From NCBI GenBank assembly GCA_017528205.1, contig JAFXPE010000032.1:76375-140374 (forward strand): a DNA stretch of 64,000 nucleotides. The letters run 5' to 3'. Source of the stretch: Alphaproteobacteria bacterium (GTDB taxonomy: Bacteria > Pseudomonadota > Alphaproteobacteria > RF32 > CAG-239). The position numbers and the translations under genes are program-made. Below are positions 3,001 through 33,275 of the stretch, piece by piece. Numbering within the stretch: position 1 is the stretch's first letter; every line of letters begins with the position of its first letter. The notes beneath the pieces were generated by a model. It made no database searches, was not told where the DNA came from, and saw only the letters and a list, made by a program, of their open reading frames with translations.

Positions 3001-6000
3001 GTTGAGAATTTGCCGGATTTACTGGCTGATCCGATAGTGGTATTTAAGGCTTTGCCGTCGTCAACAGATCCGAATGCCTATATTGCAGTCTTGGACGCTA
3101 AAGATAAAAAAGGCTTGCAGATGATTGCTGCAATCTCACCGACGAAAAAAGAGGGAGGTTATCATTTTATTACAAGTTTTTACGGTAAAAAAACTTTGCA
3201 AAATATGGTAAATGCAGCAAACGAACTGGGTAATATTAAGTATATAAAAGAAAAGAGCCTTGTCAGTGCTGGTGAAATCCAATCTTTCCCTATTACACTA
3301 ACCGGCTCTTTAAATAATAATATACTACAAAAAGAGGATATTGTCAAGAGATCTTTTTATCAGCTGCCAAGAAAGAGCCATAAGGTGCATAGCGTATTTG
3401 ATTTAAGAGTTGGTGATAAGACTGCAATCGGCGATGTGCAAGAGATTAACAGTGAAAATCGGACAATCAAGATCAATGATCGGCTGCACTCTATGCTTAT
3501 GCTTGATACACAGATACAATATAAAGGCTTGACGGTTTATGACGGCCAAGAGCAGAATGAAGTTACTGAAACGACAGAACAAGTGCCGGCAGATGTTAAG
3601 AAAGCCACCGGTGATTTAGCAGCAGTGGCAGAACAGAAAAAGCATAATACTGAATATAACAAGGCAGCAATTTCTTATTTTGGCCTAACAAATAAACTGT
3701 CTGAAACTGGATATATTTTGACTGACGGCAGCCTTTTGGATTTAAGCGGCAAGAATTTTGGCGGATCTCCGAACATAAGATCACTTGATCATAGAGATGT
3801 TGTAAAGCCGTTAGATCGGTGGAATGCTAAAATGGAGGAATTTATTAACTCCGGCAATATTCGGTATTTGCCAGAGGGTGATAAATTGCTTATGAGCAAT
3901 ATGCCGACAGCTAAGCAGCTTAAGGTTATTGAAAATATTATCAATAAAACCGGCGGCAATATCACGATTGAGTTAATGGGCGACGCAAACCGTTGGGGAA
4001 TGAATAAAAATGACTTTTATAATGAGTATGTAAATGCGTCATTTAATCAAGTAAAGCGTGATATAAATGCTTTTTATAAAGGTGACGGTGTGCGTGAAAT
4101 AACGCGCTATTATCAGAAAATGTCAGTAACAAATGCTAAAATTGCCAAGCTACAAGAGAGTTTGCAGCAATGGGAAAAGTATTTGGCCGAAGTTATTGAA
4201 CCGAATAAATATAACTGGTATAAAGACGCGTTAGAAGATAACCGCAAGAATGCTAAGCGCAAGATTGCTCAATTTAAGCGTGATATTAAAAAAGAGCAAG
4301 AAAAGGCCAGTGTTCCGGTTGGTGATAAGCTATACGCTACACATAATATGAGTTTAGCCGGTGTAAAAGGTGCGTTAAGTCTTGGCGGCCTTGCCATGCC
4401 GTCACTTGCATTGCGTAAAGTGTCGCAAGGCAATATAAATCAATTTGGCGACATTGTATTTGTGGCTAATGAAAAAATGGTTGAGCCAAGCCGCACAACA
4501 GATGTATTTGATCGTGACGCATGGACGCCAAGCATAGCAAATTCTATGCGTTACACTCTCTTGCCAAGTGGTAATACATTCATAAAAAATGTGTTAGCCA
4601 AAGCAGGCAGAGAGCGCGATTTATCAATGTTTGTGTATAATATCAGTGAAAATCTTGATACGCCGAAGAGCAACGATATGGCGTTAGAACTCTATGCACT
4701 TGACAAAGGTATTGAGTTGGATCCGTATGAAACACTACACAGCGCGGAATATCTTGACTGGTATGACGAAAATATTATGGGCAATTCAGAGCCGTATTTG
4801 TGGACTGAAAATGCCAGTAATACGGATATGGTGGCCAAGAAATTTACGCTTGATAACATTATGAAGATCTTGAAAAAACAAGAGCGTAGTGGCGGCGGCT
4901 TTTTGGGTGAGCATGTTTGGAGTGTTAGAAACCTCTTGAATTTTATGGCCAAGAAATACAAAAACCTTGATGAAGTGCGTAAAGAAAAGCATAAACTTGT
5001 ATCTGCGGAGGAACAGGCGGATTATATACAGAAACTTGACAGCCAATTTTGGGATTTAGCCGAAGAGCTGAAAGTTGACGATTATGATTATATGTATGGT
5101 GATGATCGGTATGGTTTAGCCGTTGCGGTGGTTAATGCTGAAAATGGTGACGATACAATTAAAGATCGGTTGAAAAGCTACCATTTAGACACATCAGACG
5201 CAGCGATTGCCAAAGTGAAAGAGTTTAGTAATCAACTCAAGAACGTGTTGACTGATTATTTTGAGGTTAAACCTCGCCGCGTTGTTAATTTCAGCGAGTT
5301 TTCCGGTGTTATTATACCGGTAGGCCAAGAATATGACGCGGTGGCCAAGCAGCTTGAACATGAGTATATAACTGTTGAGCGCGCTAAAAAAGGTGACGCA
5401 GCCGATTATGAACGTGCTTTGATGAATATTCAAGCGAATGCAGAAACAACGTTTTTCCAAAATCAAAAGATTGACGCGGAGGCGTTGGGTGCTTATACGC
5501 CGCTTGAGCGTAAAATCACTCTGTTTCGCAACAACAATCTTTCAACTCTGATACATGAAAGCGGCCACTATTGGCTTGATATGCTGCAGCAGTTCGCTCA
5601 AATGCCGAACGCAAGCGAAAAACTACGCAATGATTGGGCAGTGGTAAAGGATTGGCTCGGCGTTGGTGAGGATAATGTTATCACGACAGAGCAACATGAA
5701 AAGTTTGCGCGTGGCGTTGAAAAGTATTTTTTGACGCGCAAAGCGCCCTCTTCTACTCTGGCCAAAATTTTTGACACTTTCCGGCGGTGGCTTGTTTCGG
5801 TGTATAAAGATGTAAAAGAGCTTGACGTTGATTTGAACGACGATGTTGCACGCGTGTTTGACCACATGCTTGCTAGTGAAAGTGAAATTGAAGAGTATGC
5901 GCAAGCGCAGCAATTTGCGGATATGTTGGAGAAAAGCACTAAAGGCTTAAGCAATGCAGATCTGGCCAAGTATGCCGAATTAACCGAACAGGCAATGACA

Positions 6001-9000
6001 ATGGCTAAAGATAAGCACCTGACGGACAAAGTTGCTTTAATCCTTAAAGAAGAAACAGAGGCCTATAAAGAAAAGCAAGCGCAGCTCAAGGCTCAAGTGT
6101 TGGAAGAGTGGAGCAAGGACAATTTGAATAAGGCCGTTTATATCTTGGTGACAGGCGAAGTGCCGCATGGCCACTTGGATATTAAGATAAAAACGGACGA
6201 TCTCAAGACGTTGCTCGGCGATAATTACGAACGTTACGCTATTTTTGGCGGCAAACCGATTTTTGCTGACGACGGAATAAGCCTTGTAGATTTGCAGGAA
6301 TTTACCGGCTTAACCGAAAAGCAGGTAAAGGCAGCACTTTTGACAGCCAGACAGCGTATGCGCAACTTTAAGCAAGCCTTACAGCAGCGCACGCATGAAG
6401 AGCTTGGCGATCCGGTAACCTATGACGATGTGCAAAAACAGGTTATTGCCTCTTATTATAACGACAAACGCGCTCAACTTTTAGACTTGGATCTGAAAAG
6501 TTTGGCCGGTGATGACGCGAAAAAGCAAGCAATATCCACGCAAGGCTTTAAGCAGTGGGCTGCCGACACAATCAGTCGCATTGCAATTAAAGACTTGCGG
6601 CCGGATCAATACTCAAGAGCCATGCAATTTGCCGGTGATAAGGCAATGGCTGCACTCAATCACGGACAGCGCGGCTTAGCGTATAGAATGAAAATACAGC
6701 AAATACGCAATTTTGTGTTATATCGTGAGGCGTCGGCCAGACAGGCGGAAGTTGAAAGCACATTGCGCCGGTTGAAACAGATCGGCAAGCAGGAAGTCAA
6801 CCACGATGTTGATCAAGTCTATCAAGACGCAGTGCGTGCACTCTTGAGCCGTTTTACACTCTCAAGAGCATTAACGCAAAAGGCTAAAGAACGTCTTGGC
6901 AATTTGAGTGCTTGGATCTTAGAGCAGCGCAGCAACGGCTATGATATTGTTGTGCCGGCTGATCTTTTGGAAAAAAACAACGGCACAAGCTATACAGAGC
7001 TGACGGTTGATGAATTTTTGACACTTGGTGAGAGTGTTAAGAGTTTAGTGACTAATGGCCGCGCAATCCGTCAATTTGAAATTGAGGGCGAACTGATTGA
7101 GCGCGAAAAACTGCTGCAAGAGTTTGCTGCGCAGCTGCGCAAGACTTATAAAGGCCGCGATATTCAGCGCACCGGTAAAAAGAAGTTTAGAGGTATATCT
7201 GAATTGCTTGCACCGGCTGACGCTGCGGTGGTTGGTTTTGGTGATTTTTCTAACCGGATTGACGGCTATGATACAAACGGCATTTTTCACCGGTTATTTT
7301 TACGGCCGATGACGGAGAGCCAAAACAGAGAAAACGAGTTGCTGCGTCTATATGGTGGCAAGATGAAACAACTGCAAGAGGCTTTACCGGAATGGGTAAA
7401 GAAACAACTTTTTGATAACGTTACCGGTGCAAAAGAGGTGCTTGGCGCAGACTATACGCGCGGCGAATTGATAAGTATTGCCTTAAATATGGGTAACTTA
7501 AGCAACTTGCAGCGTTTACATGACGGCAACGGATTTTCTGACGAACAGCTTGCTTGGGTTTCCGGCACGCTTAGCCACGAAGAATGGGATTATATTCAGG
7601 GCGTATGGGATACGCTTGAAAGTATGTATCCTATGCTTGCAGAGCACCATAAGAAAATGAGCGGCTTGGACATGGATCATGTTTTGGCCGCGCCGGTGGT
7701 AACGCCTTACGGTGTTTATAAAGGTGGATATTTTCCGCTCTTTTATGATAGATCGGCGGAAATGGAGGCGCGCCGCAATAACAGCCTTGAGCAAGCATTG
7801 CTTGAGAGTGATTACGGCCGCGCAACGACAAGCACCGGCTACACAAAGCAACGTCAAAATATCGTTAATGAGGCAATTAAGTTTGATCTTGGCCTGATAC
7901 ACAGACACTTGGCAAGCGCAATTCATGATCTGGCTTGGCGCGGAAATATCCGACAGATGTGGAATATGGCTAATAATCCGACATTTATGGCCACAATGGA
8001 CGGCTATTTGCATGAAAGCTATAGGCAGCAGCTTATGAAGTTAATCAAAGATCTGGCTAACTCAACAAACAGAGAGGCCAGAGAGATGACTTTTGCTGAA
8101 CGCATGGCGCGCAATATGCGTGTGGCCAGAACGACGATCGGCTTAGGTTTTAGAGTTAAGACGGCAGTTAAACAACTGACAGGCTTTGCTCAATCGGTGG
8201 CTATTATGAAACGTTACGGCCATAAAAACAAAGGCAAACATAGTGCAAGCTATTGGCTTATAAAAGGCACAAAGGCGTTTGCCTCCGATAAGACGACGCG
8301 TGAATGGTGTTTGGCTAACTCCGGTGAGCTTAGAACACGCTTGAATAACATGGACGCAAACATTGCAGAGGCCATGAAAGGTGTGGCTACAAAACAATCA
8401 AAGCTGCAAAAGATTGATGAAAATATCTACAATGCAGCGTTTTGGGCAATCGGTAAAGTTGATGTTTTCACGGCAGAGAGCACTTGGTATGCTGCATATT
8501 TGCAGGCGACAAATGACTTTGGTTACAAACATCAGGACGCGGTATTTTATGCCGACAGAGTGATGATTGAAAGTCAAGGCAGCGGCAATCTTAAAGATAA
8601 GCCGGCCATGCAACGCAAAAACGAATGGGAAAAAATGTTTTTAATGTTTTATTCGCCGTTTAGCGGAATGTATGGCCTTTGGACGTCTGTCATCAGAGAT
8701 ATACGCGACGGTAAAGAACGATCCGCAGCGTTGGCTGATTTGGCGGTGGCGATGTGCTTGCCGGCGTTTCTTGAGGCGTTGGTTGACGGTGATCAGCCGG
8801 ACAGTGATGATGATTTGGCCGAATGGCTTAAATTCTTCTTGCTGCGGCCGATTATGTTTTGGGCGTCAACAATGCCGATCTCAAGAGATTTAGCAAGCTA
8901 TTTTGAATATGGCCGCGCACAAGGCTTTTTCGGTGATACGTTTAAGGCGATCGCTGATTTGCCAAAAGTGGTGACAAGCGATAAATGGACGGCCGGCAAG

Positions 9001-9198
9001 CGTGTTAATGCGGTAATGAACGCAAGCGCGCAAATAGCCGGCACTTTCGGATTTAATTTGCCGGTTGGCGGACAGCTCGCAGACTGGACACAATGGCTGA
9101 CAGATGTGGCTGCCGGTAATATTAAAATTGAAAGTCCAATGAATGTTATCTGGGGTGTTTGGCGTGGTAAAGACGGCAAGCCTAAAGATAAAAAATAA
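1..9198 (+). CDS. Giant modular 'polyvalent' phage protein (5'-truncated, >3060 aa), likely virion-internal/injected. Putative domains: ddrB-like ParB (~1640-2700), MuF-C/PBECR-like RNase (~2870-3245), uncharacterised inserts, HExxH metallopeptidase (~5490-5880)
   Basis: Frame is open from base 1. Motifs TSHD..NENYPQELQPRDRSRAAS..GAPIV..VGNGR (ParB-like), LGELP..KH..LPDLLADPIVVF..HFITSFYGK (MuF-C/BECR-like) and STLIHESGH..QHEKFARGVEKY (zincin). Lies just upstream of tail-fibre genes. Confidence 0.75.
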   Translation, partial: AGAKAGWVAGNALAAYESYQIEANSMTESLLDVTDSDGKPLEDWVVDGASYAYGAIAAMIELVPMKAVTNTIPGMKNITKVGIKQALKEAVKDKTKRQVIMQIIKDYGLAVAGESAEEAAQQFTQAEFTRGAKALMNALYDTDFKQQSFAKDLAESADAAIQAGKATVIMAGASSATRIKPELKAWQRDQETKELKRGQEAKAQYDAQRMDEVAAAAQSYMQKPSAERATLKKYMQQAKNSSVYQDIYMSADDARAVMISEAVQKNKAALQESGLYDDIERQIEQADQLGTPVRIAFETFGSEIMASQELYAAFKDVIKTYENGITMQELRLEAEKQQQVRNNIEQAAKDNASDYEYAYQYIVEQEAAGGIDQQRRGYTAEFLAKILTYMAKETQTPITEVVAKYAPTFERSFDGSVGGGQTVQDIISTIRKSAQDKEVQNLMKRAGELGKRDARKIAKILGKHLDNAAAGDVQQFMRVVNAIGDMKLNIEAMTDEDIANSLDSYTKSGDVQLNITRDDADRVKSGIFSASEKALSDIQANGQDSDYVVVGGGRIPVQYHIVELNDMVTSHDDAGAVNENYPQELQPRDRSRAASDTQIAAIVNNFAPERVGQAEIATEGAPIVTPEGFVAVGNGRAMAIRQVYKNAEKAQAYKDYLASKGYDLNGFEQPVLVRKLAIDMNNEQLKALVDDANTAGTMQYSDSENALRDADKMSGNLLDLLDMEADIDSAANRRFLNAFFAEVVPTAERNAYLDKDDKITRKGVERVENAIVAKLLPDARMLSILVENPDNNIRKVTKELAKAAPAIISFENDIAADRINADYSIAADVSGAVDLLKRAKDRGVTAAEFIAMRDMFEAPISSSTQNMVQLFEKSSGAADFLNKIRSYIRQAGEQGDMSQDNMFGLQPVSKAELLDQLARQESLLQRNIAQIFQPTRIEKSNYIADLRAAEQSTGNEKKIIRLGELPAVYKAIGIPAAKVNTSKKVIIKDTIEKHDVSLQAVENLPDLLADPIVVFKALPSSTDPNAYIAVLDAKDKKGLQMIAAISPTKKEGGYHFITSFYGKKTLQNMVNAANELGNIKYIKEKSLVSAGEIQSFPITLTGSLNNNILQKEDIVKRSFYQLPRKSHKVHSVFDLRVGDKTAIGDVQEINSENRTIKINDRLHSMLMLDTQIQYKGLTVYDGQEQNEVTETTEQVPADVKKATGDLAAVAEQKKHNTEYNKAAISYFGLTNKLSETGYILTDGSLLDLSGKNFGGSPNIRSLDHRDVVKPLDRWNAKMEEFINSGNIRYLPEGDKLLMSNMPTAKQLKVIENIINKTGGNITIELMGDANRWGMNKNDFYNEYVNASFNQVKRDINAFYKGDGVREITRYYQKMSVTNAKIAKLQESLQQWEKYLAEVIEPNKYNWYKDALEDNRKNAKRKIAQFKRDIKKEQEKASVPVGDKLYATHNMSLAGVKGALSLGGLAMPSLALRKVSQGNINQFGDIVFVANEKMVEPSRTTDVFDRDAWTPSIANSMRYTLLPSGNTFIKNVLAKAGRERDLSMFVYNISENLDTPKSNDMALELYALDKGIELDPYETLHSAEYLDWYDENIMGNSEPYLWTENASNTDMVAKKFTLDNIMKILKKQERSGGGFLGEHVWSVRNLLNFMAKKYKNLDEVRKEKHKLVSAEEQADYIQKLDSQFWDLAEELKVDDYDYMYGDDRYGLAVAVVNAENGDDTIKDRLKSYHLDTSDAAIAKVKEFSNQLKNVLTDYFEVKPRRVVNFSEFSGVIIPVGQEYDAVAKQLEHEYITVERAKKGDAADYERALMNIQANAETTFFQNQKIDAEALGAYTPLERKITLFRNNNLSTLIHESGHYWLDMLQQFAQMPNASEKLRNDWAVVKDWLGVGEDNVITTEQHEKFARGVEKYFLTRKAPSSTLAKIFDTFRRWLVSVYKDVKELDVDLNDDVARVFDHMLASESEIEEYAQAQQFADMLEKSTKGLSNADLAKYAELTEQAMTMAKDKHLTDKVALILKEETEAYKEKQAQLKAQVLEEWSKDNLNKAVYILVTGEVPHGHLDIKIKTDDLKTLLGDNYERYAIFGGKPIFADDGISLVDLQEFTGLTEKQVKAALLTARQRMRNFKQALQQRTHEELGDPVTYDDVQKQVIASYYNDKRAQLLDLDLKSLAGDDAKKQAISTQGFKQWAADTISRIAIKDLRPDQYSRAMQFAGDKAMAALNHGQRGLAYRMKIQQIRNFVLYREASARQAEVESTLRRLKQIGKQEVNHDVDQVYQDAVRALLSRFTLSRALTQKAKERLGNLSAWILEQRSNGYDIVVPADLLEKNNGTSYTELTVDEFLTLGESVKSLVTNGRAIRQFEIEGELIEREKLLQEFAAQLRKTYKGRDIQRTGKKKFRGISELLAPADAAVVGFGDFSNRIDGYDTNGIFHRLFLRPMTESQNRENELLRLYGGKMKQLQEALPEWVKKQLFDNVTGAKEVLGADYTRGELISIALNMGNLSNLQRLHDGNGFSDEQLAWVSGTLSHEEWDYIQGVWDTLESMYPMLAEHHKKMSGLDMDHVLAAPVVTPYGVYKGGYFPLFYDRSAEMEARRNNSLEQALLESDYGRATTSTGYTKQRQNIVNEAIKFDLGLIHRHLASAIHDLAWRGNIRQMWNMANNPTFMATMDGYLHESYRQQLMKLIKDLANSTNREAREMTFAERMARNMRVARTTIGLGFRVKTAVKQLTGFAQSVAIMKRYGHKNKGKHSASYWLIKGTKAFASDKTTREWCLANSGELRTRLNNMDANIAEAMKGVATKQSKLQKIDENIYNAAFWAIGKVDVFTAESTWYAAYLQATNDFGYKHQDAVFYADRVMIESQGSGNLKDKPAMQRKNEWEKMFLMFYSPFSGMYGLWTSVIRDIRDGKERSAALADLAVAMCLPAFLEALVDGDQPDSDDDLAEWLKFFLLRPIMFWASTMPISRDLASYFEYGRAQGFFGDTFKAIADLPKVVTSDKWTAGKRVNAVMNASAQIAGTFGFNLPVGGQLADWTQWLTDVAAGNIKIESPMNVIWGVWRGKDGKPKDKK
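3246..3311 (-). ncRNA. Candidate ~66-nt antisense small RNA nested in the giant gene
   Basis: Starts ~8 nt after the -10 box. Stems AAAGAGCC/GGCUCUUU (3311-3304 with 3259-3252) and GUUAGUG/CACUGAC (3302-3296 with 3268-3262); ends in UUUUCUUUU. Confidence 0.5.
3319..3347 (-). promoter_or_regulatory. Antisense sigma70-type promoter inside the giant gene
   Basis: Minus strand reads TTGACA (3347-3342), 17-bp spacer, TATATT (3324-3319). Confidence 0.7.
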
Positions 9199-11760: not shown

Positions 11761-12816
11761 ATGACAGATACTATTGAAAGACGTATAAGAATACGACGCA
11801 ATGATAAGGCAAGCGCACGCAGCAATAATGAGGTTTTGCGTGAGGGTGAGCCGGCCTTTGAAACTGATACCGGTGATTTTAAGATCGGTGACGGCTCAAC
11901 AACTTACCGCAAGCTCTTAGGTATTCGCTCGGAGGCTGAAATTGCCGAACAGATTGCACAAGGTATTTATGAGGGCACTAACTTACAGGAAAAATTTGCT
12001 GATGAAATTGCTGAATACGGCAATGTAGCTGACTGGCTGCATGCTCGTTGCTCAGCCGGAAATTTTAAGGGAATATATCCGGGGGATTATTTCTACGATA
12101 AGACAGTGGCTCAAACTGTTGACGGCACATCTGTTGCTGCTAACCAAAACAGAAAATGTGTGATTGCCGGTATTGATATGTATTATAATGCCGGTGATAC
12201 GGCTATGCCGCACCACCTGACAATTTTTGCCGGTTTTTCGGCGGCAAACGTGGTATTTAATACAACAAATAACAATAACGGCTCAAGCTACAATGCTAAT
12301 CCGTTTAAGGCCTCAAAACTCTATGCGGTATTAAACGGTGTTAATAACAGCACCACAAACAAAATCGGTGCGGTTGGTTTTAACGGCACCGGCGGCTGCT
12401 ATCTTAATACATTTTCAAGCGCACTGCGTAACAGAATGGTTGAACAAAGATGTTTCTTGCCGGAGAGATACAGTGCGAGTGCTGCTTTAACTGATCATAC
12501 CGGTTGGAATTGGCAAGGACGCGGAATGCTCTTTGCACCGTCTGAAATAGAGGCTTATGGCTGCTTAATTCACTCAAACAAGCCAAGTATGACGCAACAA
12601 AATCCGGAGGGTTTTGGTCCATATTGCCACTGGCCGATCTTTAAGACTGCCGGACAGCGTGGCCGTTTGATGAATGGGCGCACTTACTTTTGGCTCTCCT
12701 CTGTTGGCGGTGGAGGCTCGTCTAACGCTTGCATTGTCACCGGCCACGGCAATGCGAACTGCATCAACACGTCGAACACGCTCATACGCGCGCCGCTCTG
12801 CTTTCATATCGCATAG
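11761..12816 (+). CDS. DGR target protein: receptor-binding/tropism-determinant-like, Mtd_N-like N-terminus and C-terminal variable (probably C-type-lectin fold) domain
   Basis: N-terminal IRIRR..NEVLREGEPAFETDTGDFKIGDG motif; 3' end contains the VR matching the TR. Confidence 0.85.
   Translation: MTDTIERRIRIRRNDKASARSNNEVLREGEPAFETDTGDFKIGDGSTTYRKLLGIRSEAEIAEQIAQGIYEGTNLQEKFADEIAEYGNVADWLHARCSAGNFKGIYPGDYFYDKTVAQTVDGTSVAANQNRKCVIAGIDMYYNAGDTAMPHHLTIFAGFSAANVVFNTTNNNNGSSYNANPFKASKLYAVLNGVNNSTTNKIGAVGFNGTGGCYLNTFSSALRNRMVEQRCFLPERYSASAALTDHTGWNWQGRGMLFAPSEIEAYGCLIHSNKPSMTQQNPEGFGPYCHWPIFKTAGQRGRLMNGRTYFWLSSVGGGGSSNACIVTGHGNANCINTSNTLIRAPLCFHIA
12674..12805 (+). repeat. DGR variable repeat (VR) incl. 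GC-rich IMH region
   Basis: 123/132 identical to 13326-13457; all 9 differences lie opposite TR adenines. Confidence 0.97.
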
Positions 12817-12840
12817 CGGAGCGAACGCTTAAAAATAACA

Positions 12841-12865
12841 GCGGCCGGTTGATAAAGCCGGCCGC
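12841..12865 (+). promoter_or_regulatory. DGR target-recognition hairpin/cruciform downstream of VR
   Basis: GCGGCCGG...CCGGCCGC 8-bp GC stem, extendable by TT/AA (with a bulged G) around a GATA (GRNA-type) loop; 24 nt after the target stop codon. Confidence 0.75.
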
Positions 12866-12899
12866 ATTGGTGAAACATTATTTTTCTTGAGGTTATAAA

Positions 12900-13316
12900 A
12901 TGGTTGTCTATGCAAAAGACAGAAAAGAAACAGCTACACAATACATTATTACGGCGCAAAATTTACAGGAAAAGGTTTTGCGTTATATGATGAATGAAAA
13001 GCGCGTGCCTAAAAAATGGCGTTATCTGTTAGCGCATGCAGCTATTAAAAAGGTTTGTGAATTGGTTGATAATGTGATCGCCTCAAATAAAACTTACCCA
13101 AGCAATGAGGATAAGCTCAAGCTGCGCAAGGATTATCTTGATAAGGCGGTGGTTAATTGTTATCAACTGGGTAATCATCTACAGCTTATGATACGTGTGA
13201 TTGATACCGTTGACGCAAACAGCCTTAAGGAAATTTCAAGTTTGCTGCTCGATGAAATTGAACTTTTACGCAAAACGCATAAAAACTCTCATATTGTTGG
13301 GCAGCAAGAGGTTTAA
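12900..13316 (+). CDS. avd: DGR accessory variability determinant (Avd-like four-helix bundle)
   Basis: 138-aa basic helical protein between VR and TR, with PKKWRYLL..I and AN/SN..Y..R patterns typical of Avd. Confidence 0.8.
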   Translation: MVVYAKDRKETATQYIITAQNLQEKVLRYMMNEKRVPKKWRYLLAHAAIKKVCELVDNVIASNKTYPSNEDKLKLRKDYLDKAVVNCYQLGNHLQLMIRVIDTVDANSLKEISSLLLDEIELLRKTHKNSHIVGQQEV

Positions 13317-13325
13317 TGTTGTATC

Positions 13326-13457
13326 ATGGGCGCACTAACTTTTGGCTCTCCTCTGTTAGCGGTGGAGGCTCGTCTAACGCTTGCAATGTCAACGGCAACG
13401 GCAATGCGAACTGCAACAACACGTCGAACACGAACATACGCGCGCCGCTCTGATTTC
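13326..13457 (+). ncRNA. DGR template repeat (TR)
   Basis: Non-coding, A-rich copy of VR with 11 AAY codons in the VR frame; between avd and RT. Confidence 0.95.
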
Positions 13458-13686
13458 GTTTTATGCTTGTCTTAGTAGGCCGATCCGGCTGAAAACAATG
13501 CGATTAAATGAAAGGAATATTAAACCTCGCCGAATTGGCAAATAAGAGTTTTGACGCTGACCTGCGGACGCCTCTGAAAAATTGAAGTTGCATAGTGAGC
13601 TATCGTGACGGAACGCTCATTTTATGCAGGTGCAGTATGTGGTATAAATCCGTCAAGAGCCATGCAAGACTTAAAAGGGGTATTTG

Positions 13687-14796
13687 ATGACACGAAGAAA
13701 AAGAAGATATGAACGCCGCAAAGCAGCGCGTGAGGCCAAGCGCGCTGCTTTTCTGGCTAAGTATGACAATTATGATTTGGTATGTGACCGGAATAATCTT
13801 TTTGCTGCAGCAGATATGGCTAAAAAGCATGTGATGTGGAAAGGCACGGTGCAGCGATGGAGTATTGAGCAGCTTTTGAATACTGAAAAGCTATATCGCG
13901 ACTTAAAGGCCGGCAAAGATGTGCGCAGAGGATTTGCAAAGTTTAAGGTATGTGAACGCGGTAAAACGCGCAATATATCGGCAGTGCGCTTTTATGAGCG
14001 TGTTGTGCAAAAGGCTTTGTGTAAATATGTGTTATATCCGGTATATACAAAATCGGTATTGTTTGATAATGCTGCCAGTCAAAAAGGTAAAGGCACAAAG
14101 TTTGCCGCCGACAGAATGATCCGGCACTTAAGCCGGCATTTTAATCGGTATGGCCAAGCCGGCTATGCGGTGCTTGTGGACTTCAAAGGATATTTTGAGA
14201 ATATCGATCACGATGTAGCCAAAGAGATATATCGGCAAAAGTTTAAGGATAAGCGATTGCTGAAATTGATTGATGACTTTATTGACGCTTATGGTGTTAA
14301 AGGTTTGGGACTTGGATCAGAAACAAGTCAAATGCACGCAATTTACTATCCGAATAAGATCGATCATGCGATAGTTGAAACGCATGGCCATGATAAAGTT
14401 ATGTTTGGCCGGTATATGGACGACAGCTACATTTTGACAAGAGAGAAAAAGACGGCAATCAGAATGCTTGACAAGATCCGTGACTGGTGCAGGCGGCTGC
14501 GGATCACGCTGTCACCAAAGAAAACAATGATTGTCCGTATTAAAGACGGTTTGAAGTGGCTCAAAACAATCTTTTACCTGACGGCCACCGGCAAGATTAT
14601 AAAAAAGCCGGAGCATAAGAGTGTGGTTAGGGAGCGGCGAAAACTAAAGAAACAAATTAACCTTTTGCGCGGCAATGCTTTAGGCAAAGCAGAGCTTACG
14701 CAATCTTTTGAGAGTTGGGCAGGCAGCATGAAACGGCGCAATGCGCGCTTGTCCGTGTGGAATATGCGCCGGTTTTTATGGAGTATAATGTCATGA
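13687..14796 (+). CDS. DGR reverse transcriptase
   Basis: VLVDFKGYFENIDH, GLGLGSETSQ (SQ motif of DGR RTs), RYMDD catalytic motif; no maturase/endonuclease tail. Start is ATG 13687 or TTG 13684, after AAGGGG. Confidence 0.95.
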   Translation: MTRRKRRYERRKAAREAKRAAFLAKYDNYDLVCDRNNLFAAADMAKKHVMWKGTVQRWSIEQLLNTEKLYRDLKAGKDVRRGFAKFKVCERGKTRNISAVRFYERVVQKALCKYVLYPVYTKSVLFDNAASQKGKGTKFAADRMIRHLSRHFNRYGQAGYAVLVDFKGYFENIDHDVAKEIYRQKFKDKRLLKLIDDFIDAYGVKGLGLGSETSQMHAIYYPNKIDHAIVETHGHDKVMFGRYMDDSYILTREKKTAIRMLDKIRDWCRRLRITLSPKKTMIVRIKDGLKWLKTIFYLTATGKIIKKPEHKSVVRERRKLKKQINLLRGNALGKAELTQSFESWAGSMKRRNARLSVWNMRRFLWSIMS

Positions 14797-17013: not shown

Positions 17014-17203
17014 TGTTGAATTAAAAGACGAAGAACGTCAAAAATGTGAGATTTGGACACGCGTCATGGGGTATCATCGGCCGGTGTCGGAATTTAACAA
17101 AGGTAAAAAAAGCGAATATTACAGCCGCAAATGTTTTTGTGAAAGCAAAGCGATTGCCGGTATGGAGGCTCATGACGCTGCACCTTTACTTGCAGCCGAA
17201 TGA
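17003..17203 (+). CDS. Stand-alone NrdD C-terminal (glycyl-radical) domain protein
   Basis: CEIWTRVMGYHRPVSEFNKGKKSE matches the class III RNR glycyl-radical segment; GGAGG RBS. Confidence 0.75.
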   Translation: MSDNVELKDEERQKCEIWTRVMGYHRPVSEFNKGKKSEYYSRKCFCESKAIAGMEAHDAAPLLAAE

Positions 17204-18420
17204 TTATTTAAGACAGCGGTGGCTGCCGTGAATTTGTTGGGTGCAAGGTGAGCATAACGCATTGTCATTGCAAGAGTTTTATGGCCAAGTAATTCTTTAA
17301 CGGTGTAAAGATCAACGCCGGCCATGACAAGCCAAGACGCAAATGTGTGCCGCAACGTATGGAATACCACGCGCAGCTGCCGGTCTGTTATATTTTGATT
17401 AAACAGCCGGTCGGCAATTTCCTGATATTGGTCTGACAACTCATAAATAGGTGATCCGGTATAACTCTGAAAAATATGTTGTTCTCCGGTGAGCTGCAAC
17501 TCTACGATCCGGCGTTTTAATATTTCAATCATGTCATTTGTGAGCGGCAGGTTGCGGCTCTTATGATTTTTTGTTTTGCGTATTGTGAGAAAACCGGTGC
17601 TAAAATTTACATCAGCCGCGCGCAGGTTAAAAAGTTCTCCCTCACGGCAGCCACAATTTAACGCAATAACTGCGATTTCATACGTTTGATTTGTTTGGTG
17701 GCGTTTATAATATTCATAGCCGAATGTATGTTGTCCGGTAACTTTAATTTTATTTAACTCTTGCAGCAGCAGTGCGGCCTCGTCATGACTTAAAAAACGC
17801 AGCCTTTCATTATCTACCGGCAAAAGGTCAATATTATCCATAGGATTTGTGCTTATCTTACCTCTGGCAATAGCCATATTGAAAAGGTGGCGGATTAACT
17901 TCAAAACATGATTTATTGTTGCAGGCGCATATTTTGACTCTCCAGAGGCTTTTTTTGTTTCAAGCATAGTCTGCTTTATTTTTTCAACTTCATCAATTCT
18001 GACGCAATTTAGCGGCAAATAACCAATATGTTTTTTTATATGGTTATCATAATTTTGCCGTTCGTTAATCACTCCTTTATCAGATTTAACGCCTTTTTGT
18101 GTGACCTCATACTGATTATAAAACTCATCAACAGTCATATTTGCGGATTCGCGCGCGGTGGTGACGGCAGCTTGCTGCTCATACTTCTCTTTGAGCGAAC
18201 GATAGCCGGTGCCTTTTTTAATGTTCTCACGCAAGATCTCAATTTCAGCTGCGGCTTTTGTTTCAGTATAACCGGCACTTTCCCACCCATAACCCTCTTG
18301 CTTTCTTATGCCATTATCGGTATAGCGCAAAATAAAATACCGATCTTTGCGTATGCCGTTTTTGCGTGTATCATGTTCGCGGTAATAAACGCCTTTGTAT
18401 TTCGTTTTGAGTGTTTTCAT
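17170..18420 (-). CDS. int: Prophage tyrosine integrase
   Basis: Catalytic motifs GCREGE (R), KTK (K), HTLRH, LLGH and TMRYAH; N-terminal arm-binding region; adjacent to att site. Confidence 0.95.
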   Translation of the reverse strand: MKTLKTKYKGVYYREHDTRKNGIRKDRYFILRYTDNGIRKQEGYGWESAGYTETKAAAEIEILRENIKKGTGYRSLKEKYEQQAAVTTARESANMTVDEFYNQYEVTQKGVKSDKGVINERQNYDNHIKKHIGYLPLNCVRIDEVEKIKQTMLETKKASGESKYAPATINHVLKLIRHLFNMAIARGKISTNPMDNIDLLPVDNERLRFLSHDEAALLLQELNKIKVTGQHTFGYEYYKRHQTNQTYEIAVIALNCGCREGELFNLRAADVNFSTGFLTIRKTKNHKSRNLPLTNDMIEILKRRIVELQLTGEQHIFQSYTGSPIYELSDQYQEIADRLFNQNITDRQLRVVFHTLRHTFASWLVMAGVDLYTVKELLGHKTLAMTMRYAHLAPNKFTAATAVLNNHSAASKGAAS

Positions 18421-18574: not shown

Positions 18575-18630
18575 ACTTAAAATCTGTTGGGATTTATCCC
18601 GTGCCAGTTCAAGTCTGGCCTAGCGCACCA
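18575..18630 (+). other. attR: displaced 3' half of tRNA-Leu(TAA)
   Basis: Anticodon loop CTTAAAA, long variable arm GGGATTTATCCC, T-arm GCCAGTTCAAGTCTGGC and acceptor end GCGCACCA; no D-arm or 5' acceptor strand upstream. Confidence 0.88.
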
Positions 18631-18632
18631 AT

Positions 18633-18666
18633 AAAAAAGCTCCTTCGTTTGAAGGAGCTTTTTTTT
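18633..18666. terminator. Bidirectional intrinsic terminator
   Basis: A6-GCTCCTTC-GTTT-GAAGGAGC-T8. Confidence 0.9.
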
Positions 18667-18716: not shown

Positions 18717-21700
18717 CTAAAATTTGTATTTAACATTCAGCATATAATACGGCTCGTGCTTTTCTTCCAACGGAAGGTTGGCCGACGCGTCGAGCGTAAA
18801 TTGCTGATAGTCGTATTGTGCTTTCAAGCCGATTAAACCGAAATCGCGCTTTAAGCGATTGCTGATAATATCATAATAACCCACCATATCACCCACCGTA
18901 GCCCGGTTTTTGTATTTTTTACCGAACTCGTGGAAATACTTGGCATTAACCGCCAAACCAAGAGCTGATTTGCTGTTAATTTCAAATCTTTTTCTGGCGG
19001 TTATGCCGAGAACAGATTGCGCCGATAATACGTTTTTATCTTTAATCTTAAGTCCGTTGGCGCTTTCTTCTATGTCATCCATATACATTCCCGTAAGATT
19101 AAACTCGGCGTCAGGCTCGATTTCCAACAAATTCAAATCGATATTTTGCCGAATAATGTTATCAAGCCCGTAGTAGTATTCTTTAGTTGTTGCTTTATGA
19201 GTATTATCCACGGCAACACGACGATAATGTCCGTGCGCAAATCCGGCTTTCGGTTTTGTCATAAATGCCAGATTGTTTTTATGGAAAATAATCGGGGCAA
19301 AAATTTCCGCCATATTGTTATATCTTGTCGACTTGTCGTCAAAATCGCTGTCCAGACGGGAAATCTGTACACCCAATCCCATTCTTAATCCGCCGGCAAC
19401 CTCTTTGTCGCCAAAGCCGTGAACGGCTACGACTTTATCTTTATAACCGCTGGTTTGTCCCTTTGCTTTTACATTATTTTTATAAACAAGCGTGTTAACT
19501 GCATATCTTGTCGGCTCGCCGTTGATATTGAGCAACTCGTCATTTACGCTGGCCGATATCGTTTTTTCAACGTCCAAACTTTGCTTGGCCAAATTAGGCA
19601 ACATACTGAAACCGAGCTGTTTGTTTAAATAATCGTCAAACTGTTCCTGAGTTTGAGCCGTTTTTAAGGTGTCGAAAATTTCTTCGCCGTGCTGTTCTTC
19701 ATAGTTTTGTTCCAAAAATTCGGAAATATCGTCATCTTCAACCACCTCATCAAATGCCTTCATGGTCATAACTACATCGGTATTGCCGCTTTCGGTATTT
19801 TCTTGAGTATCGGCATCAAACATATAAGATTCGGAAACCACTTCAATGCCTTTGTTTTCACCGACAAATGAATTTTCATTAACATAGGTTGTTTCAAATC
19901 CGCCTTCAACGATGCTGGTGTCGGCGCTGATTTGACCGCTGAAAGATTCGGCTTCATAAGAACCGCCATCACCGATGGAAACTTGCGCTTTGTTTTCATC
20001 ATCGGCAGAACCGAAGTTGACCGCTCCTGCGGTTTGGATTGAGCCCAAATTCAAAATTTTAACGTTTCCGAGTAATTCCTCGCTGTCGGTTCCGATAAGC
20101 GAAGAATCGTCATTTTCATCAACGGATGCAATTGTAATTCTTCGTGTTCCCAAACTGCGCGACCTTGTTTCCGGAATAACGCAAATTGAGCCGTTACATT
20201 CGATTTTTGTTCCGGAATCGAGGTCAGGAACGTTAACTTGGTCTCCTGCCGGAGTGTAGCTGTCGTCTTCGTTTTTCACAAAGTGATAGTTTTTATAAAT
20301 ATAAATACCATATCCGTCGGTAACCCGAATAACGCCGGTATTGGTAACCGAAACCGGAGTATTTGGATCCGGAACATAAATATGAATACCGTCACCTTCG
20401 CCCGAAATAGAGATTAAACCTGAATTGGTTACGCTTGTCGGACCGCGGTTGTAAATACCGTGACCGTCGCCGGTAACCAAAATCGAACCGGAGTTTGTAA
20501 CATTTAATTGGCCGGTGTTGTTTTGAATGGCCGTACCGCTACTTCTGATGGTTCCTTCATTAACCACCGTCAACGGGCCGATATTGAATTTGTAAATAGC
20601 TTTACCGTTGTCGTTTCGAATTATACTGTCTTTAGTCAGGTTTCTCACCGAATCAACATTGTAAATAGCGGCATTTCCCGTGGTATTTCCTCTGATTGAG
20701 CCGGAGTTTGTCAAAGAAACGGCATTTTGCACGGCAATTCCGGAAACATTGATAATACCGGTTTGTGTGTTTGTAACCGTTCCGATGGTGGTTATGCCTC
20801 GTCCGTTTGCAACACTTATCGTACCGTCATTGGTTACATTTCCGAGAGCAATAATGGCATCGCCATTGGCAACATTGATGTTTCCGTTTTCAACTATATC
20901 TACGGTTGTGGCTTGATTAATAGCCGTTCCGGTGCCGGCAATATTTATGTTTTTGGCAATTACCGAAGTGTGATTGTTGCCCTCAATTCCCATACCGTTG
21001 CCGTAAAGGGTGATACTACCGTAGTTTTTAACCGAACCTTGTTCAACGTAAACGCCGTAATTTCCCGAACCGCCAGGAACCGAACCCGAACCGATAATAA
21101 TGCTTCCGTTGCCGATTTCTACCGCACCGGTACCATTGGTGATATAAATACCGGCAGAATTTGACGCCGAAGGCAACTCTATGCCGCCGTCGGAAAGCGA
21201 AACCGAAACATTGGCTTTGTCGGAATAAATACCGCGAGCTCCGGATTCGGAAACATAAATTATTCCGTTAAGATTGGTAATAGAAGGAACAGAATTGGCA
21301 TAAATACCGTAACTGTCTGATGCATATATACTGATATTGGCGGAATTTTCAATTTTTGTTGCTCCGGTGGCATGGATACCGTAAGCAAAATTCGCCAAAC
21401 TGCCTCTCTTGCCGATAGTTATTATACCTTTACTGTTGTTGCTGATTACGGCTCCCGTTCCGGTTGAACGAATACCGTAAGAGTTTATGGCTTTATCTAA
21501 TGTGATAGAGGCATTATTGTTTATTTTGGTGGCACCGGCGGAATAAATACCGGTGGAATTATCACCTGAAATATTAATGACACCGCCATTGTTTATGGTG
21601 CCGGAATTTTCTGTATAAATACCGGTACTTGAAGATGCGAGTATACTGATTTGTCCGCTGTTATCGATTTGTGAGGCTTTTTCTGTATAAATGCCGTAAG

Positions 21701-24700
21701 CACCGTTAGCCGGAGTTTCCAAGGCTCCGATGCTTATGGTTGCCTGATTGTCAACATTGGAAGTTCCGGTGGTATAAATACCATAGCTTCCATCGGCAAC
21801 CGGAATGTTAATTATACCTTTATTCAAAACCGAAGAACTGCCGTCGGCAGAAATACCTTTGTTGTTCGAACCTTTAAGCAAGGACAACGTAGCGTTGTTT
21901 GTCACATAATCATGTCCGACAATTGCCGTACTGCCTTCGCCGAAAATGGTTATAACGGATGAATTGGTTATTTTGTTGGAATTAGGAGCATAAATACCAT
22001 TAACATTTGAAGCTAAAGTTATATCTCCGCTTCCCAAAATAATCGAATTGCCTTCCGAGCTGGAAATCGTGGTCGCGCCGTTGGTGTAAATGCCCGAACT
22101 TGAGGCTGCGTGCGGTATGGTAATTGAAGCGGAGTTAGTAATGCCGCGGTTATCCTCCGAAGCAAAAATACCTATACTTTCATCACCCGAAACATAAATC
22201 TCGCCGCTGTTATCAACTTCAATGCCGCCGGAAATACCGCTTGACGACTTGGCGTAAACATAAATATCCTGCTGATTGAGAATGTAATTTGAGTTCAAGC
22301 CGTAAATACCGTAAGCATCTGTCGCGGAAATATCTTCACAATTGCAACCGATGGTAATGCTTCTGGTTTCTCCGGTATTTTTTATGTTGGCCTGGCCGGA
22401 AGAATAAATACCCGCGCTGCCGTTGGCGTTGTTAACCTTTATGTCGTTGCTATTGGTAATCGAAGTATTGTTGGTATTGCCGTAGATGCCGTTGCTGTTG
22501 CGGCCGTGAACATAAATACGTCCGCTATTGCTTATCACTTCGCCGCCGGATATTCCGTTGGATGAACTTGCATAAACAAAGATGTTGGCGTCATTGGCAA
22601 TACTTAAAGCATTCGGGGCATAAATTCCGTTGGCTTGGCTGGCATCAGCCTCTTCCGAACCCATATAGATAAAGCCGTTTTCGCTGTGATTGATAATCGA
22701 GGTTTGTCCGGCAGAAGCAATACCGCTACTACCTTGTGCGATGTCAATGGATATATGTGCGGCGTTTTCTATTGATGTATTTATCGAAGAACCGTAAATA
22801 CCGACACTGCTACCGCCGGTAACTGAAATATCTCCGGTATTTTTAATGGATTTTCCGCCATAAATTCCGCCGGCCGATCTGGAAAAAACCACAATTTTTG
22901 AATTATTGATAATGCTGTTTGCGTCTTGCGCGTGAATGCCGTATGCACCGTAACCGATGCTTCTTACCGTACCGACGTTGATTCTGCCGTTGCCCGAGTT
23001 GTTAATATCGACTGCTCCGCGGGAATAAATGCCGTAAGTGTTATTTCCGCTCAGCAAAATAAGAGAACCGTTGTTGCTGATGGTTTGACTTGTCTCGGTG
23101 TCGGTAAGATTGGTTTCAATCGCTTTACTGCTTTCGTCACCCATTTGGATTGTGCCGTTGTTGGTAACCTCATATACACCGCCGCCGTAAATACCGACGC
23201 TGTCTCTGGCGAAAACTTTAATGGTTCCGGAGTTTTCTATTCCGCTGTTTTCAACCTCATCGCTGCTTTCATCGGCATAAATTCCGTAGCCGTTTTCGCT
23301 GTAAACCAAAATTTCGCCGTAGTTGTTCACGGTGCCGATTTTTGATGAAACAACGCCGCTGTTATACAGATTATTGGTGTTTTCATCACCCACAATAATG
23401 GAGCCGTTGTTGTTTAAGCTCAAAACGCTGTCAACACTACCGCCGCGAACGGCTGTGACGCTGTTGCCGATGGCACTTATTAAAGTGTTGTTATAAACAT
23501 TAACGTTTCCGGTTACCATTATAACATCGGTATAATCATTATAAGAATAAATCAGACCGTTATCCGTATCGTTGATAAAGGTGGATTTTCCGCCGAGTGT
23601 AACGGCGTGACTACCGCCGCCGTTATATAAATTGATAGTGCCTCGGTTGATTATCGTGCCTACGGCATCTGCGGTGGCAATAATGGCGTTGGCACCGCTC
23701 ACCGGATTTTCTTCCGAACCGACATTGATAACCACGTCGGTATCGTTTAACATATTGGCTTCAAAAGAAATTTCAGCGGCAACTCCCCCGTCTTTGAGAA
23801 TGTTTATCGGTTTCTTATTGATAAATCTTCCGTATGCCGCATAAACCGCCGTACCCTTTTCGCGCTGAAGATTTATTAAACCCTCGTTGACAATTTCCGC
23901 ATTGCCGCTCGAATAAATGGCGTAAGCATAATCATCATTATAAAGATTGATGGTGCCTTTATTGCTGATAGAACCGCTGCCGGTATTATAAATCGCATAG
24001 CTGTCTTTAACATCATTATCTTCGGTGCCGACATTGATTATGGCTCCGATGCCGTTAACAATATCGGAGGTTCCTTCATTAAAAATACCGTAAGAGTTGT
24101 CGCCGTAAACATTAATCAAACTCGAATTGATGATTTTGGAAGCACTGCTGGAATAAATTGCCGCGCCGGCAACTTTTGTATACAGGTCGATTTTGCCTTT
24201 GTTGGTTATTGTGGCGTCAATAAGAGCGTTTCTTACGGTTTTTCTGCCAACGTATATACCGTAACTGTTTTCTGCCGGAGAACTCTTGCTCCCCACGGTA
24301 ATTACGGAGTTTTTCTCATTGGTGATTTCCGGAAAATACAGATAGTCCGTATCGGATTCGCTGCTGTCATTCTTGCCCACATGAATAGCGGTGCTGTTAC
24401 TGTCTTTTATGTTGATTTTGCCGTAATTGTGAATGTTGCTGTAATCGGAAGCGTAAATACCGAGCGAGTATTCTTCGGCCGTTTCAATGGTGCCTTTGTT
24501 GATAACATCAGAGTTTTTCAACGATTCGCTGACCATAGCCGCCGAAAAGCGTGAGCTGGTTTTGATGGTTCCGTGGTTGAAGATTCCGGCATTGTTCAAG
24601 GCATATTCGTCCATATACAAACCGATGCTGTTGGTTGCATTTTGAGTTTTTCGGTCTTTTATTTCGATTACGCCGTAGTTATAAGCCTTAGCCTGCGTGC

Positions 24701-32498: not shown

Positions 32499-33275
32499 AT
32501 GTATAAAGTTTTAATTATGTTGCTCGGTGCGCTGTTTATGGCTCAAACTGCCGCGGCACAAACGGCAAAAACCGCTCCGGCACAAGCAATAATTAAAGAT
32601 GCAAAAGTCGCATCTGACGCAAAAGCAGACGAAAACAAAGACGAAGAAGGAATTGATTGGCGCAAAATCACGGTCAAGCAAGTCGAAGAGTTGTTAAAGG
32701 AAGAAAAAATAAAGTTGGACGAGTACGACTATAGGGGTGACACCCCACTGATGAGTGCCGCGGCCGAATGTGCCAGACCGGAAATTTTGGAAACGCTCAT
32801 TAAAAACGGCAAAGATGTAAAACTTTATCCGCCGACGGATAATCCGGAAGCCGCTTTGGCAACCTCGGCTCTTTATTCTGCCGCCGGTTGCAATATGGAT
32901 ATTGTTAAAATGCTGGTAGAAAAAGGTGCTTCGGTTAACGTTTACGGCGATATGGGTATGAGCCTGTTGATGCACTTTTCCGCTCGCACTCATGACCCGA
33001 AAATTATCGAGTATTTAATTGAAAAAGGCGCGAATGTTCTTGATTTGGACGACAACGGCAACCACGTTTTAATGTATGCGCTCTTAAATGAAGAAGCGGC
33101 GCACAAAGTTATTGAAGTATTGCTCAAAAACGGCGCTGATATTAATATGCTGGGCATAACTCCGGGAGATCAAACGTTTACGGTTTTGGATTTTGCCGAG
33201 CAGCGAAATTTGGACGCAGACGCGATTAGGTATTTACTTGAAATCGGTGCCAAACACGCCTCGGAATTATATTGA
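32499..33275 (+). CDS. Secreted ankyrin-repeat protein
   Basis: Signal peptide; GDTPLMSAA and LIEKGANV/LLKNGADIN repeats. Confidence 0.88.
   Translation: MYKVLIMLLGALFMAQTAAAQTAKTAPAQAIIKDAKVASDAKADENKDEEGIDWRKITVKQVEELLKEEKIKLDEYDYRGDTPLMSAAAECARPEILETLIKNGKDVKLYPPTDNPEAALATSALYSAAGCNMDIVKMLVEKGASVNVYGDMGMSLLMHFSARTHDPKIIEYLIEKGANVLDLDDNGNHVLMYALLNEEAAHKVIEVLLKNGADINMLGITPGDQTFTVLDFAEQRNLDADAIRYLLEIGAKHASELY

Follow-up and report, generated by a model that had tools for sequence, protein, structure and literature searches.

Diversity-generating retroelements (DGRs) that act on phage tail fibres are textbook material, and gut phages are known to carry many of them. In Bordetella phage BPP-1, the cassette runs in the order mtd-avd-template repeat (TR)-brt, past the tail fibres and ahead of the lysis genes. 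Roseburia phage Shimadzu (LR596903), whose name recalls a genus of the Bacillota, carries another such cassette, and a lectin-type fold with variable residues is also seen in TvpA of Treponema denticola, a bacterial protein and not a phage fibre. A 64,000-nucleotide stretch of contig JAFXPE010000032.1 from an Alphaproteobacteria bacterium (assembly GCA_017528205.1), here called the window, holds a further element of this kind at positions 11,761 to 14,796. The element is a genuine, complete DGR with the architecture of BPP-1, and its membership of this known type of system is confirmed. It is very probably functional and recently active, and carried by a BPP-1-like temperate phage of about 41 kb that has integrated at a tRNA-Leu gene in the chromosome of an uncultured alphaproteobacterium from the gut. 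Its parts are as follows.

11761..12816, plus strand: target gene, an open reading frame (ORF) of 351 aa with an Mtd_N-type anchor at about residues 9-47 and a predicted enlarged C-type-lectin-like domain at about residues 99-351.
12674..12805, plus strand: variable repeat (VR), in frame at the 3' end of the target gene, encoding about residues 305-348.
12786..12805, plus strand: 3' end of VR, a putative boundary like the initiation of mutagenic homing (IMH) site; GC-rich 15-mer at 12786-12800 that is the same in TR, a fixed C at 12801 (A in TR), then TTTC.
12841..12865, plus strand: GC-rich inverted repeat (hairpin or cruciform), identified from the sequence and a DNA fold, 35 nt past the end of VR homology.
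12900..13316, plus strand: accessory ORF of 138 aa, divergent and Avd-like by position and remote similarity.
13326..13457, plus strand: TR, with 31 adenines and 11 in-frame AAY codons; non-coding.
13461..13692, plus strand: structured spacer RNA, a match to the entire Rfam RT-2 model (RF03077).
13687..14796, plus strand: reverse transcriptase (RT), DGR-type, 369 aa if started at the ATG; an upstream TTG at 13684 opens the ORF.

A repeat search finds one 132-nt direct repeat in the region (12674-12805 and 13326-13457, 93% identity). Counted base by base, the two copies are equal at 123 of 132 positions, and each of the nine mismatches has A in TR and T, G or C in VR. The resulting codon changes from TR to VR are AAC>TAC, AGC>GGC, AAT>ATT, AAC>ACC, AAC>CAC, AAC>ATC, AAC>CTC (a change of 2 nt) and TGA>TGC. 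With 31 adenines among the 132 bases of TR, the chance that nine of nine mismatches fall at A is (31/132)^9 = 2.2e-6. The TR reading frame that corresponds to the frame of the target contains TGA where VR has TGC, which leaves TR non-coding in that frame. Varied freely at adenine, the 11 in-frame AAY codons would give 15^11 = 8.65e12 protein variants, and adding the remaining A-bearing codons, with codon 347 omitted, raises the figure to about 1.1e16. An earlier reading of this DNA from its letters alone (the original prediction) had placed the target, VR, GC hairpin, small ORF, TR, 229-nt spacer and RT exactly where they are found, and the recount returns the same 123/132 match, mismatches, codon changes, 31 adenines, 11 AAY codons and approximately 9e12 variants. 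The gap between TR and RT (13458-13686) is 229 nt when the RT is taken to start at ATG 13687, the likelier start, and not at TTG 13684. Searches with these queries found no further copy of TR, VR or RT in the genome of origin (1.9 Mb, 42 contigs), and blastn of the 3-kb region against phage records gave no match.

The likeness to BPP-1 goes beyond the gene order, which is that of the annotated BPP-1 cassette. In both elements the TR/VR mismatches are specific to A, the two repeats share a GC-rich 3' end, and a GC hairpin follows VR. The two RTs fall in one clade, and both targets join an Mtd_N head to a lectin-type variable domain. Both phages are temperate and integrated at the 3' end of a tRNA gene, their DGRs lie at the same place between tail fibres and lysis genes, and eight prophage ORFs are collinear at 20-36% identity (small terminase, portal/adaptor, tail protein, giant virion protein, tail fibre, RT, integrase).

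The target is supported, by sequence matches and a structural model, as a tail-fibre-type protein in which an Mtd_N head is followed by an enlarged C-type-lectin-like domain carrying the VR residues. It matches Pfam Mtd_N (PF18454) at 35.9 bits against a cut-off of 26.3 and no other Pfam family at E up to 0.01; mtd_2nd (PF21916), to which BPP-1 Mtd scores 116.5 bits, is not among its matches at that threshold. An AlphaFold2 model built on 64 homologues has a mean predicted local distance difference test score (pLDDT) of 93.6 and a predicted template modelling score (pTM) of 0.90, and VR encodes its last four strands. When the model was compared with structure representatives by VIA-align, the best match to residues 99-351 was the domain at the N-terminus of an IgA peptidase from Thomasclavelia ramosa (Z 13.6, 186 residues, root-mean-square deviation (rmsd) 3.0). 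That domain has, according to its authors, a C-type-lectin-like core with large decorations and double the usual size, and they leave its function open (PMC12237041). Around 40 C-type-lectin domains match the target at Z 4.5-7, middling values for the classic members of the fold, and the C-domain of Legionella Lcl matches at Z 7.2. TvpA (2y3c) matches over 137 residues at a modest Z of 6.0 and has no sequence similarity to the target. The N-terminal stretch, residues 7-69, resembles the corresponding part of phage HylP fibres (Z 7.5) and of Mtd (Z 5.0). Foldseek against the PDB gives weak matches, with Mtd chains at E of about 1e-2 and rmsd of 18-19 Å. Several homologues of the target carry Pfam DUF6273. 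A phage receptor-binding type of target with a C-type-lectin fold at its C-terminus had been anticipated in the original prediction, and the predicted fold, the Mtd_N match and the two ORFs directly upstream, which match tail-fibre PHROGs, all agree with it.

Variation in VR would most likely change the host surface receptor that the phage binds. We infer the location of the target on the virion, and a real DGR could also diversify a surface or defence protein that is expressed during lysogeny and serves the bacterium, leaving host range unvaried. Such a role would suit a protein that lacks the second domain of Mtd and whose best structural match is a bacterial surface peptidase domain. It is nonetheless unlikely, given an Mtd_N trimer-anchor domain that scores above its cut-off, an N-terminus that also resembles those of phage HylP tail fibres, and a gene that stands directly past two tail-fibre-PHROG ORFs and ahead of the lysis genes, as mtd does in BPP-1.

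That this DGR of a tail-fibre-type protein has been active is suggested by the variation among its relatives. The target belongs to a 90% cluster of 44 members, and the 15 listed members all have different VR peptides. Nine members have an identity of at least 95.5% to the window protein and vary at 18 columns, 15 of which lie in the 18 A-bearing TR codons; the remaining 25 VR codons contribute none and the 308 non-VR columns contribute three. Contigs from other samples vary in the same way. A metagenomic relative, L012, has an RT that is 98% identical and DNA that is 87.4% identical over 8.9 kb. Its TR differs from that of the window at four positions, none at A, and the three internal differences are each repeated in its own VR, while the two VRs differ at 18 positions, 15 at TR adenines and three at which each VR mirrors the TR of its own element. 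An apparent third copy of a repeat 11-mer in L012 was set aside as a chance match, with 90 of 132 bases differing. X7, a contig of 42,851 bases that was assembled from a pig-gut run, covers the region end to end and differs from it at 106 places; 13 of its 17 listed VR differences are at TR adenines, and those at 12705, 12707 and 12711 are mirrored by TR at 13357, 13359 and 13363. In a bovine-gut run, X15, all five listed VR differences are at TR adenines. The variation at TR adenines that had been proposed as a check is thus present across samples, in contigs and not in raw reads. Two of the runs, X11 and X15, have no listed contig across VR, with contig ends at 12703 and 12783 (X11) and at 12716 and 12720 (X15). 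Contigs would be expected to break in this way at a hypervariable stretch; the ends prove nothing and are unused as evidence.

At the level of sequence, the flow of information from TR to VR expected of homing is found, in that changes of TR at bases other than A are mirrored in the VR of the same element (three of three in L012 and three listed in X7). The pattern suggests that TR has been copied into VR with its adenines alone scrambled, and that this has continued since the lineages split. The element is considered recently active because VR varies at TR-A codons among near-identical targets and because VRs track their own TRs. A fossil DGR, with parts intact, homing lost and the VR diversity of relatives old and inherited, would suit a copy that is a prophage within a bacterial chromosome, that differs from its TR at just 8-9 of 31 adenines and whose ongoing mutagenesis would be invisible in contigs. 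It is very unlikely all the same: nine targets that differ at three columns outside VR yet have nine different VR peptides argue against old, inherited diversity, as do VRs that follow the non-A changes of their own TRs after lineages have split (L012, X7), and every ORF is open with its catalytic residues kept.

The RT of this recently active element matches Pfam RVT_1 and contains the motifs YMDD and LGSETSQ. Its closest sequence match in the PDB is 8ub7 (E 5.6e-15), while group II RTs match at 1e-6 or weaker. The 8ub7 chain has 328 residues, as does annotated BPP-1 Brt (328 aa), and the two align to the window RT letter for letter alike, so the chain is taken to be Brt; the window RT is 28% identical to it. 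The paper on the 8ub7 structure (bRT) names F66, R74, I76, I181, G182, Q187, D138, D215 and D216 at the active site. Counted on the alignment, these residues correspond to F86, R95, I97, L209, G210, Q215, D165, D245 and D246 of the window RT, I181 to L being the sole exception to identity. R95, I97, D165, G210, Q215 and YMDD at 243-246 are invariant across 12 relatives.

A quick maximum-likelihood tree of 25 RTs places the window RT in a clade with BPP-1 Brt, the Shimadzu RT and 13 metagenomic or genomic RTs, with a Shimodaira-Hasegawa-like approximate likelihood ratio test (SH-aLRT) support of 98; 14 of the 16 rows counted as DGR had been picked by likeness to the query. All 14 RTs of the clade besides those of the window and BPP-1 have an A-biased repeat pair nearby. 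Five group II RTs and four retron-like RTs from genomes of the same class, all four of the latter scoring below the cut-off of the St85 model, fall outside the clade. Placement in a phylogeny, the second check that had been named, accordingly sets the RT with Brt and not with group II or retron-like RTs. Among 25 loci scanned, an A-biased repeat pair lies near the related RT in 15 (L005, L006, L007, L010, L011, L012, L013, L014, L015, L017, L018, L020, L021, L022 and L024; L005 and L018 are one contig, present twice), and the 10 loci without such a pair are mostly short contigs or have RTs at most 30% identical. The absence of any DGR, with a chance or recombinational duplication lying beside a retron, group II or defence-type RT, is so improbable that it can be set aside: although the best-scoring NCBIfam model for the RT is a group II intron RT/maturase (TIGR04416), its 77 bits are far under the cut-off of 300, retron_St85_RT reaches 33.3 bits against 235, the tree joins the RT to Brt and keeps it apart from the four retron-like RTs, nine of nine mismatches fall at A (p ~2e-6), and like A-biased pairs occur in those 15 of 25 loci and in Shimadzu, where 17 of 18 TR/VR mismatches fall at A.

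One member of the scanned loci, L006, is a contig of 4,104 bases that closely resembles the whole cassette, with an RT 65% identical and 19 of 19 mismatches at TR adenines. The contig is binned in a 'Thermoguttaceae bacterium' metagenome-assembled genome (MAG), and is likely a mis-binned phage contig rather than evidence of a planctomycete host.

The ninth mismatch between TR and VR stands apart from the other eight. A13453 in TR and C12801 in VR lie 4 nt before the repeat end, directly past the 15-nt GC-rich block common to both copies. In seven of 12 displayed pairs (window, L012, L006, Shimadzu, L007, L013 and L021), TR reads CTG-A-TTYC where VR reads CTG-C-TTYC, and the base on the VR side is C in all seven; in Shimadzu, the same boundary reads 'CTGATTCC' in TR and 'CTGCTTCC' in VR. 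Cys347, the residue encoded there, is kept in all 15 listed members of the target cluster and in at least 90% of the 64 homologues. Had A13453 been replaced at random and selected for Cys, T would be expected as frequently as C. In BPP-1, complementary DNA (cDNA) begins at TR G117 according to the bRT structure paper, and by our own count on the BPP-1 record this base lies 3 nt ahead of the first difference between IMH and its TR counterpart, IMH*. Because the A/C pattern recurs, Cys347 is invariant and the cDNA start of BPP-1 is analogous, A13453 would lie outside the copied segment and mark the boundary between TR and VR. The original prediction had listed all nine mismatches together as changes from TR adenines. 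Eight of them stand as mutagenic, while TGA>TGC is most likely a fixed boundary difference (IMH versus IMH*), which leaves eight mutagenic changes and 30 mutable adenines. By the same analogy, 12786-12805 may be a boundary of the IMH kind, at which copying into cDNA begins and integration is steered.

Both target-site elements of a DGR are present, the GC-rich IMH at the 3' end of VR and the hairpin downstream of it, each with a putative function. The hairpin (12841-12865, 25 nt) has eight G-C pairs, one T.G pair and one T-A pair. Folded as DNA, the surrounding 101 nt (12800-12900) give a z of -2.4, and one of 200 shuffles is as stable. A role as a terminator was rejected, since the terminator scan did not call the hairpin and no T-run follows its stem. 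A scan of 10 loci that required at least seven pairs, and that left out L022, BPP-1 and Shimadzu, finds a GC-rich hairpin 12-72 nt past VR in nine, with stem sequences that differ among loci; L021 has no downstream hairpin by this criterion. The hairpin of BPP-1 is visible in its own sequence and directly follows VR, whereas that of the window lies 35 nt past it. In BPP-1, the structure of the stem matters and its sequence does not, according to the hairpin study (PMC3240598). The differing stems of the loci scanned here fit the same rule, by analogy.

The spacer between TR and RT differs in kind from that of BPP-1. Positions 13461-13692 match RT-2 (RF03077) at 80.4 bits against a gathering score of 40, over model positions 1-222 of 222. 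No other Rfam family matches the window spacer at E up to 0.01, which leaves Phage_DGR (RF03022) unmatched, whereas the BPP-1 spacer matches RF03022 at 104.7 bits. Across the window and 16 other sources scanned, RT-2 fills the gap between TR and RT in five elements, namely those of the window, L012 (3775-4006), L006 (2065-2296), L013 (3826-3985) and L030, which is Shimadzu (4700-4923). The match in this cultured Roseburia phage reaches 144.9 bits. The spacer of L007 gives a sixth, sub-threshold match at 37.6 bits; L007 is from a Clostridia MAG, and over 150 scored genomes (of 151) of that class RT-2 has two weak sub-threshold matches, one of them being that of L007 itself. A 2017 paper on RT-associated motifs ties RT-10 alone to the BPP-1 DGR and speculates that others serve other DGRs. 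A literature search found no paper linking RT-2 to DGRs, although the supplements of the 2017 paper may place RT-2 by DGR-type RTs. By analogy with BPP-1, the spacer may act as the RNA scaffold and primer of the DGR.

The accessory ORF occupies the place of avd and has diverged far from it. It has neither a Pfam match at E up to 1 nor an NCBIfam match, and sequence searches of the PDB, with the single protein and with a profile, return nothing relevant. It is homologous to the Shimadzu ORF that its depositors named 'Avd' (hhalign probability 100%, 43% identity). When the profile was extended to the same-position ORFs of related loci and compared with a set made of BPP-1 Avd and two such ORFs that weakly match Pfam bAvd, hhalign gave a probability of 90% and an E of 1.7e-6 over 118 columns. 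The ESM Atlas model of the ORF has a pTM of 0.85, and its look-alikes include two 23S_rRNA_IVP clusters with template modelling scores of 0.75 and 0.71. By features, the nearest named cluster in the Atlas is bAvd-like at 0.87, which is a lead only. The protein is probably a four-helix bundle, and this indirect evidence points to a very divergent Avd. The name avd, given to the ORF in the original prediction, therefore holds in part: a small, remotely Avd-like ORF is in the avd position, and no Pfam family matches it.

The cassette as a whole is nearest to that of Shimadzu, its closest named relative. The Shimadzu RT is 47% identical, the accessory ORF 43-44% and the variable domain of the target 34%, and both cassettes have RT-2 in the spacer. 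The phages around them differ, in that the Shimadzu cassette is flanked by baseplate J and P2-type tail genes and the structural genes of the window prophage match BPP-1. The N-terminus of the Shimadzu target is closest to a tail-collar fibre model, which it matches at 20.9 bits and so below the cut-off of 23, and not to Mtd_N. Relative to BPP-1, in turn, the RT is only distantly similar, the accessory protein is not bAvd by Pfam, the spacer belongs to another RNA family, the target is without mtd_2nd and has an enlarged C-type-lectin-like domain as its variable domain, and the host is a gut alphaproteobacterium. The label of BPP-1 type consequently suits the overall architecture, while the VR domain, accessory ORF, spacer RNA and RT are closest to Shimadzu. 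Because the cassette is nearer to Shimadzu while the prophage ORFs match BPP-1 collinearly, the element looks mosaic.

A broader reading is favoured, with some reserve. RT-2 would be the scaffold and cis-primer RNA of a gut-phage DGR lineage, in which it replaces Phage_DGR and is paired with a divergent Avd that is invisible to Pfam; CTG-A/C-TTYC would mark the start of cDNA and the homing boundary; and the cassette would be passed on whole among unrelated phages, in this case from a Shimadzu-like lineage into a BPP-1-like alphaproteobacterial phage.

On this basis, a sequence of steps can be proposed. By comparison with BPP-1, a transcript containing the accessory ORF, TR and the RT-2 spacer would fold on the RT and the Avd-like protein, and the spacer might prime cDNA in cis near the 3' end of TR, upstream of A13453. 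The RT would then copy TR faithfully save opposite adenines, where any base could enter, as the mismatch pattern shows indirectly. The cDNA would replace VR at the 3' end of the target gene, a transfer to which the co-variation of TR and VR points, and the GC-rich shared end and the downstream hairpin may guide this replacement. The outcome would be variation of up to 16 codons in the four C-terminal strands of the C-type-lectin-like domain, which would form the tip of the fibre protein, and most likely an altered choice of the host receptor bound by the phage.

Several observations weigh against parts of this account. In X7, VR has C>T at 12744, where TR has no adenine, and the TR counterpart is not among the differences listed (40 of 283). 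Two members of the target cluster, P0108 and P0113, have Arg342 (12784-12786), which the window TR codon ATA cannot yield by changes of A; their own TRs may differ from that of the window. The four runs compared all consist of assembled contigs, in which rare variants are hidden, so that mutagenesis within a population and its rate are beyond their reach. The accessory family alone, compared with BPP-1 Avd, reaches an hhalign probability of 0.2%, and no Avd model matched directly. A priming duplex between TR and spacer, sought with RNAduplex and in a fold of 13290-13700, showed no clear pairing, and with a spacer of another Rfam family than that of BPP-1 the details of priming and scaffold stand by analogy. 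The evidence extends to sequence and predicted fold, from which we infer receptor binding and a change of host range.

The phage that carries this DGR can be delimited in the window and its source contig (C7). The left 18.6 kb of the window is the right arm of a prophage bounded by a 59-bp direct repeat at C7:53653-53711 and C7:94949 (window 18575-18633). The two copies are read as attL and attR, and attL coincides with the 3' part of tRNA-Leu(TAA). An integrase on the minus strand (window 17170-18420) abuts the right copy, and the prophage also carries an endolysin. The span is about 41.3 kb, and several members of the target cluster are on contigs of 41.4-44.1 kb. Within the prophage, window 37-9198 encodes part of a giant virion-type protein of 3358 aa, whose ORF starts at C7:75496; it has ddrB-ParB, MuF_C and PBECR5 nuclease-like domains, and its C-terminal 1,200 residues are 27% identical to BPP-1 Bbp10.

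Outside the prophage, the flanking chromosome agrees with the alphaproteobacterial host that had been suggested, as its TypA and DnaJ fall in 90% clusters with proteins of MAGs that NCBI names 'Alphaproteobacteria bacterium'. This stretch occurs in gut metagenome runs, and those compared include pig and bovine samples. Genomes of the host genus measure 1.2-2.0 Mb, and two of 24 others drawn have a match to a DGR-type RT, at 36% and 29% identity. Directly outside attR, a minus-strand ORF of 2,790 aa (window 18717-27089) encodes a giant host protein for which Pfam gives nothing at E up to 1e-4. Further along the chromosome of this small-genome gut alphaproteobacterium lies a gene for an ankyrin-repeat protein (window 32499-33275).

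Another tail-fibre DGR in a gut phage is unsurprising, and the value of this one lies in its details. It offers a clean natural example of variation between samples that is confined to template adenines, with each VR tracking its own TR. To our knowledge, the phage biology of this uncultured, small-genome group of gut alphaproteobacteria is essentially unknown. What goes beyond the ordinary is the combination of an RT-2 spacer RNA, an Avd relative invisible to Pfam, an A/C boundary mark that is conserved among relatives and a cassette of apparently mosaic origin. If the spacer serves as proposed, the orphan RNA motif RT-2 would gain a concrete job, and a second type of RNA and Avd would be indicated, which may be usable for test in DGR directed-evolution systems that are now built on BPP-1 parts.

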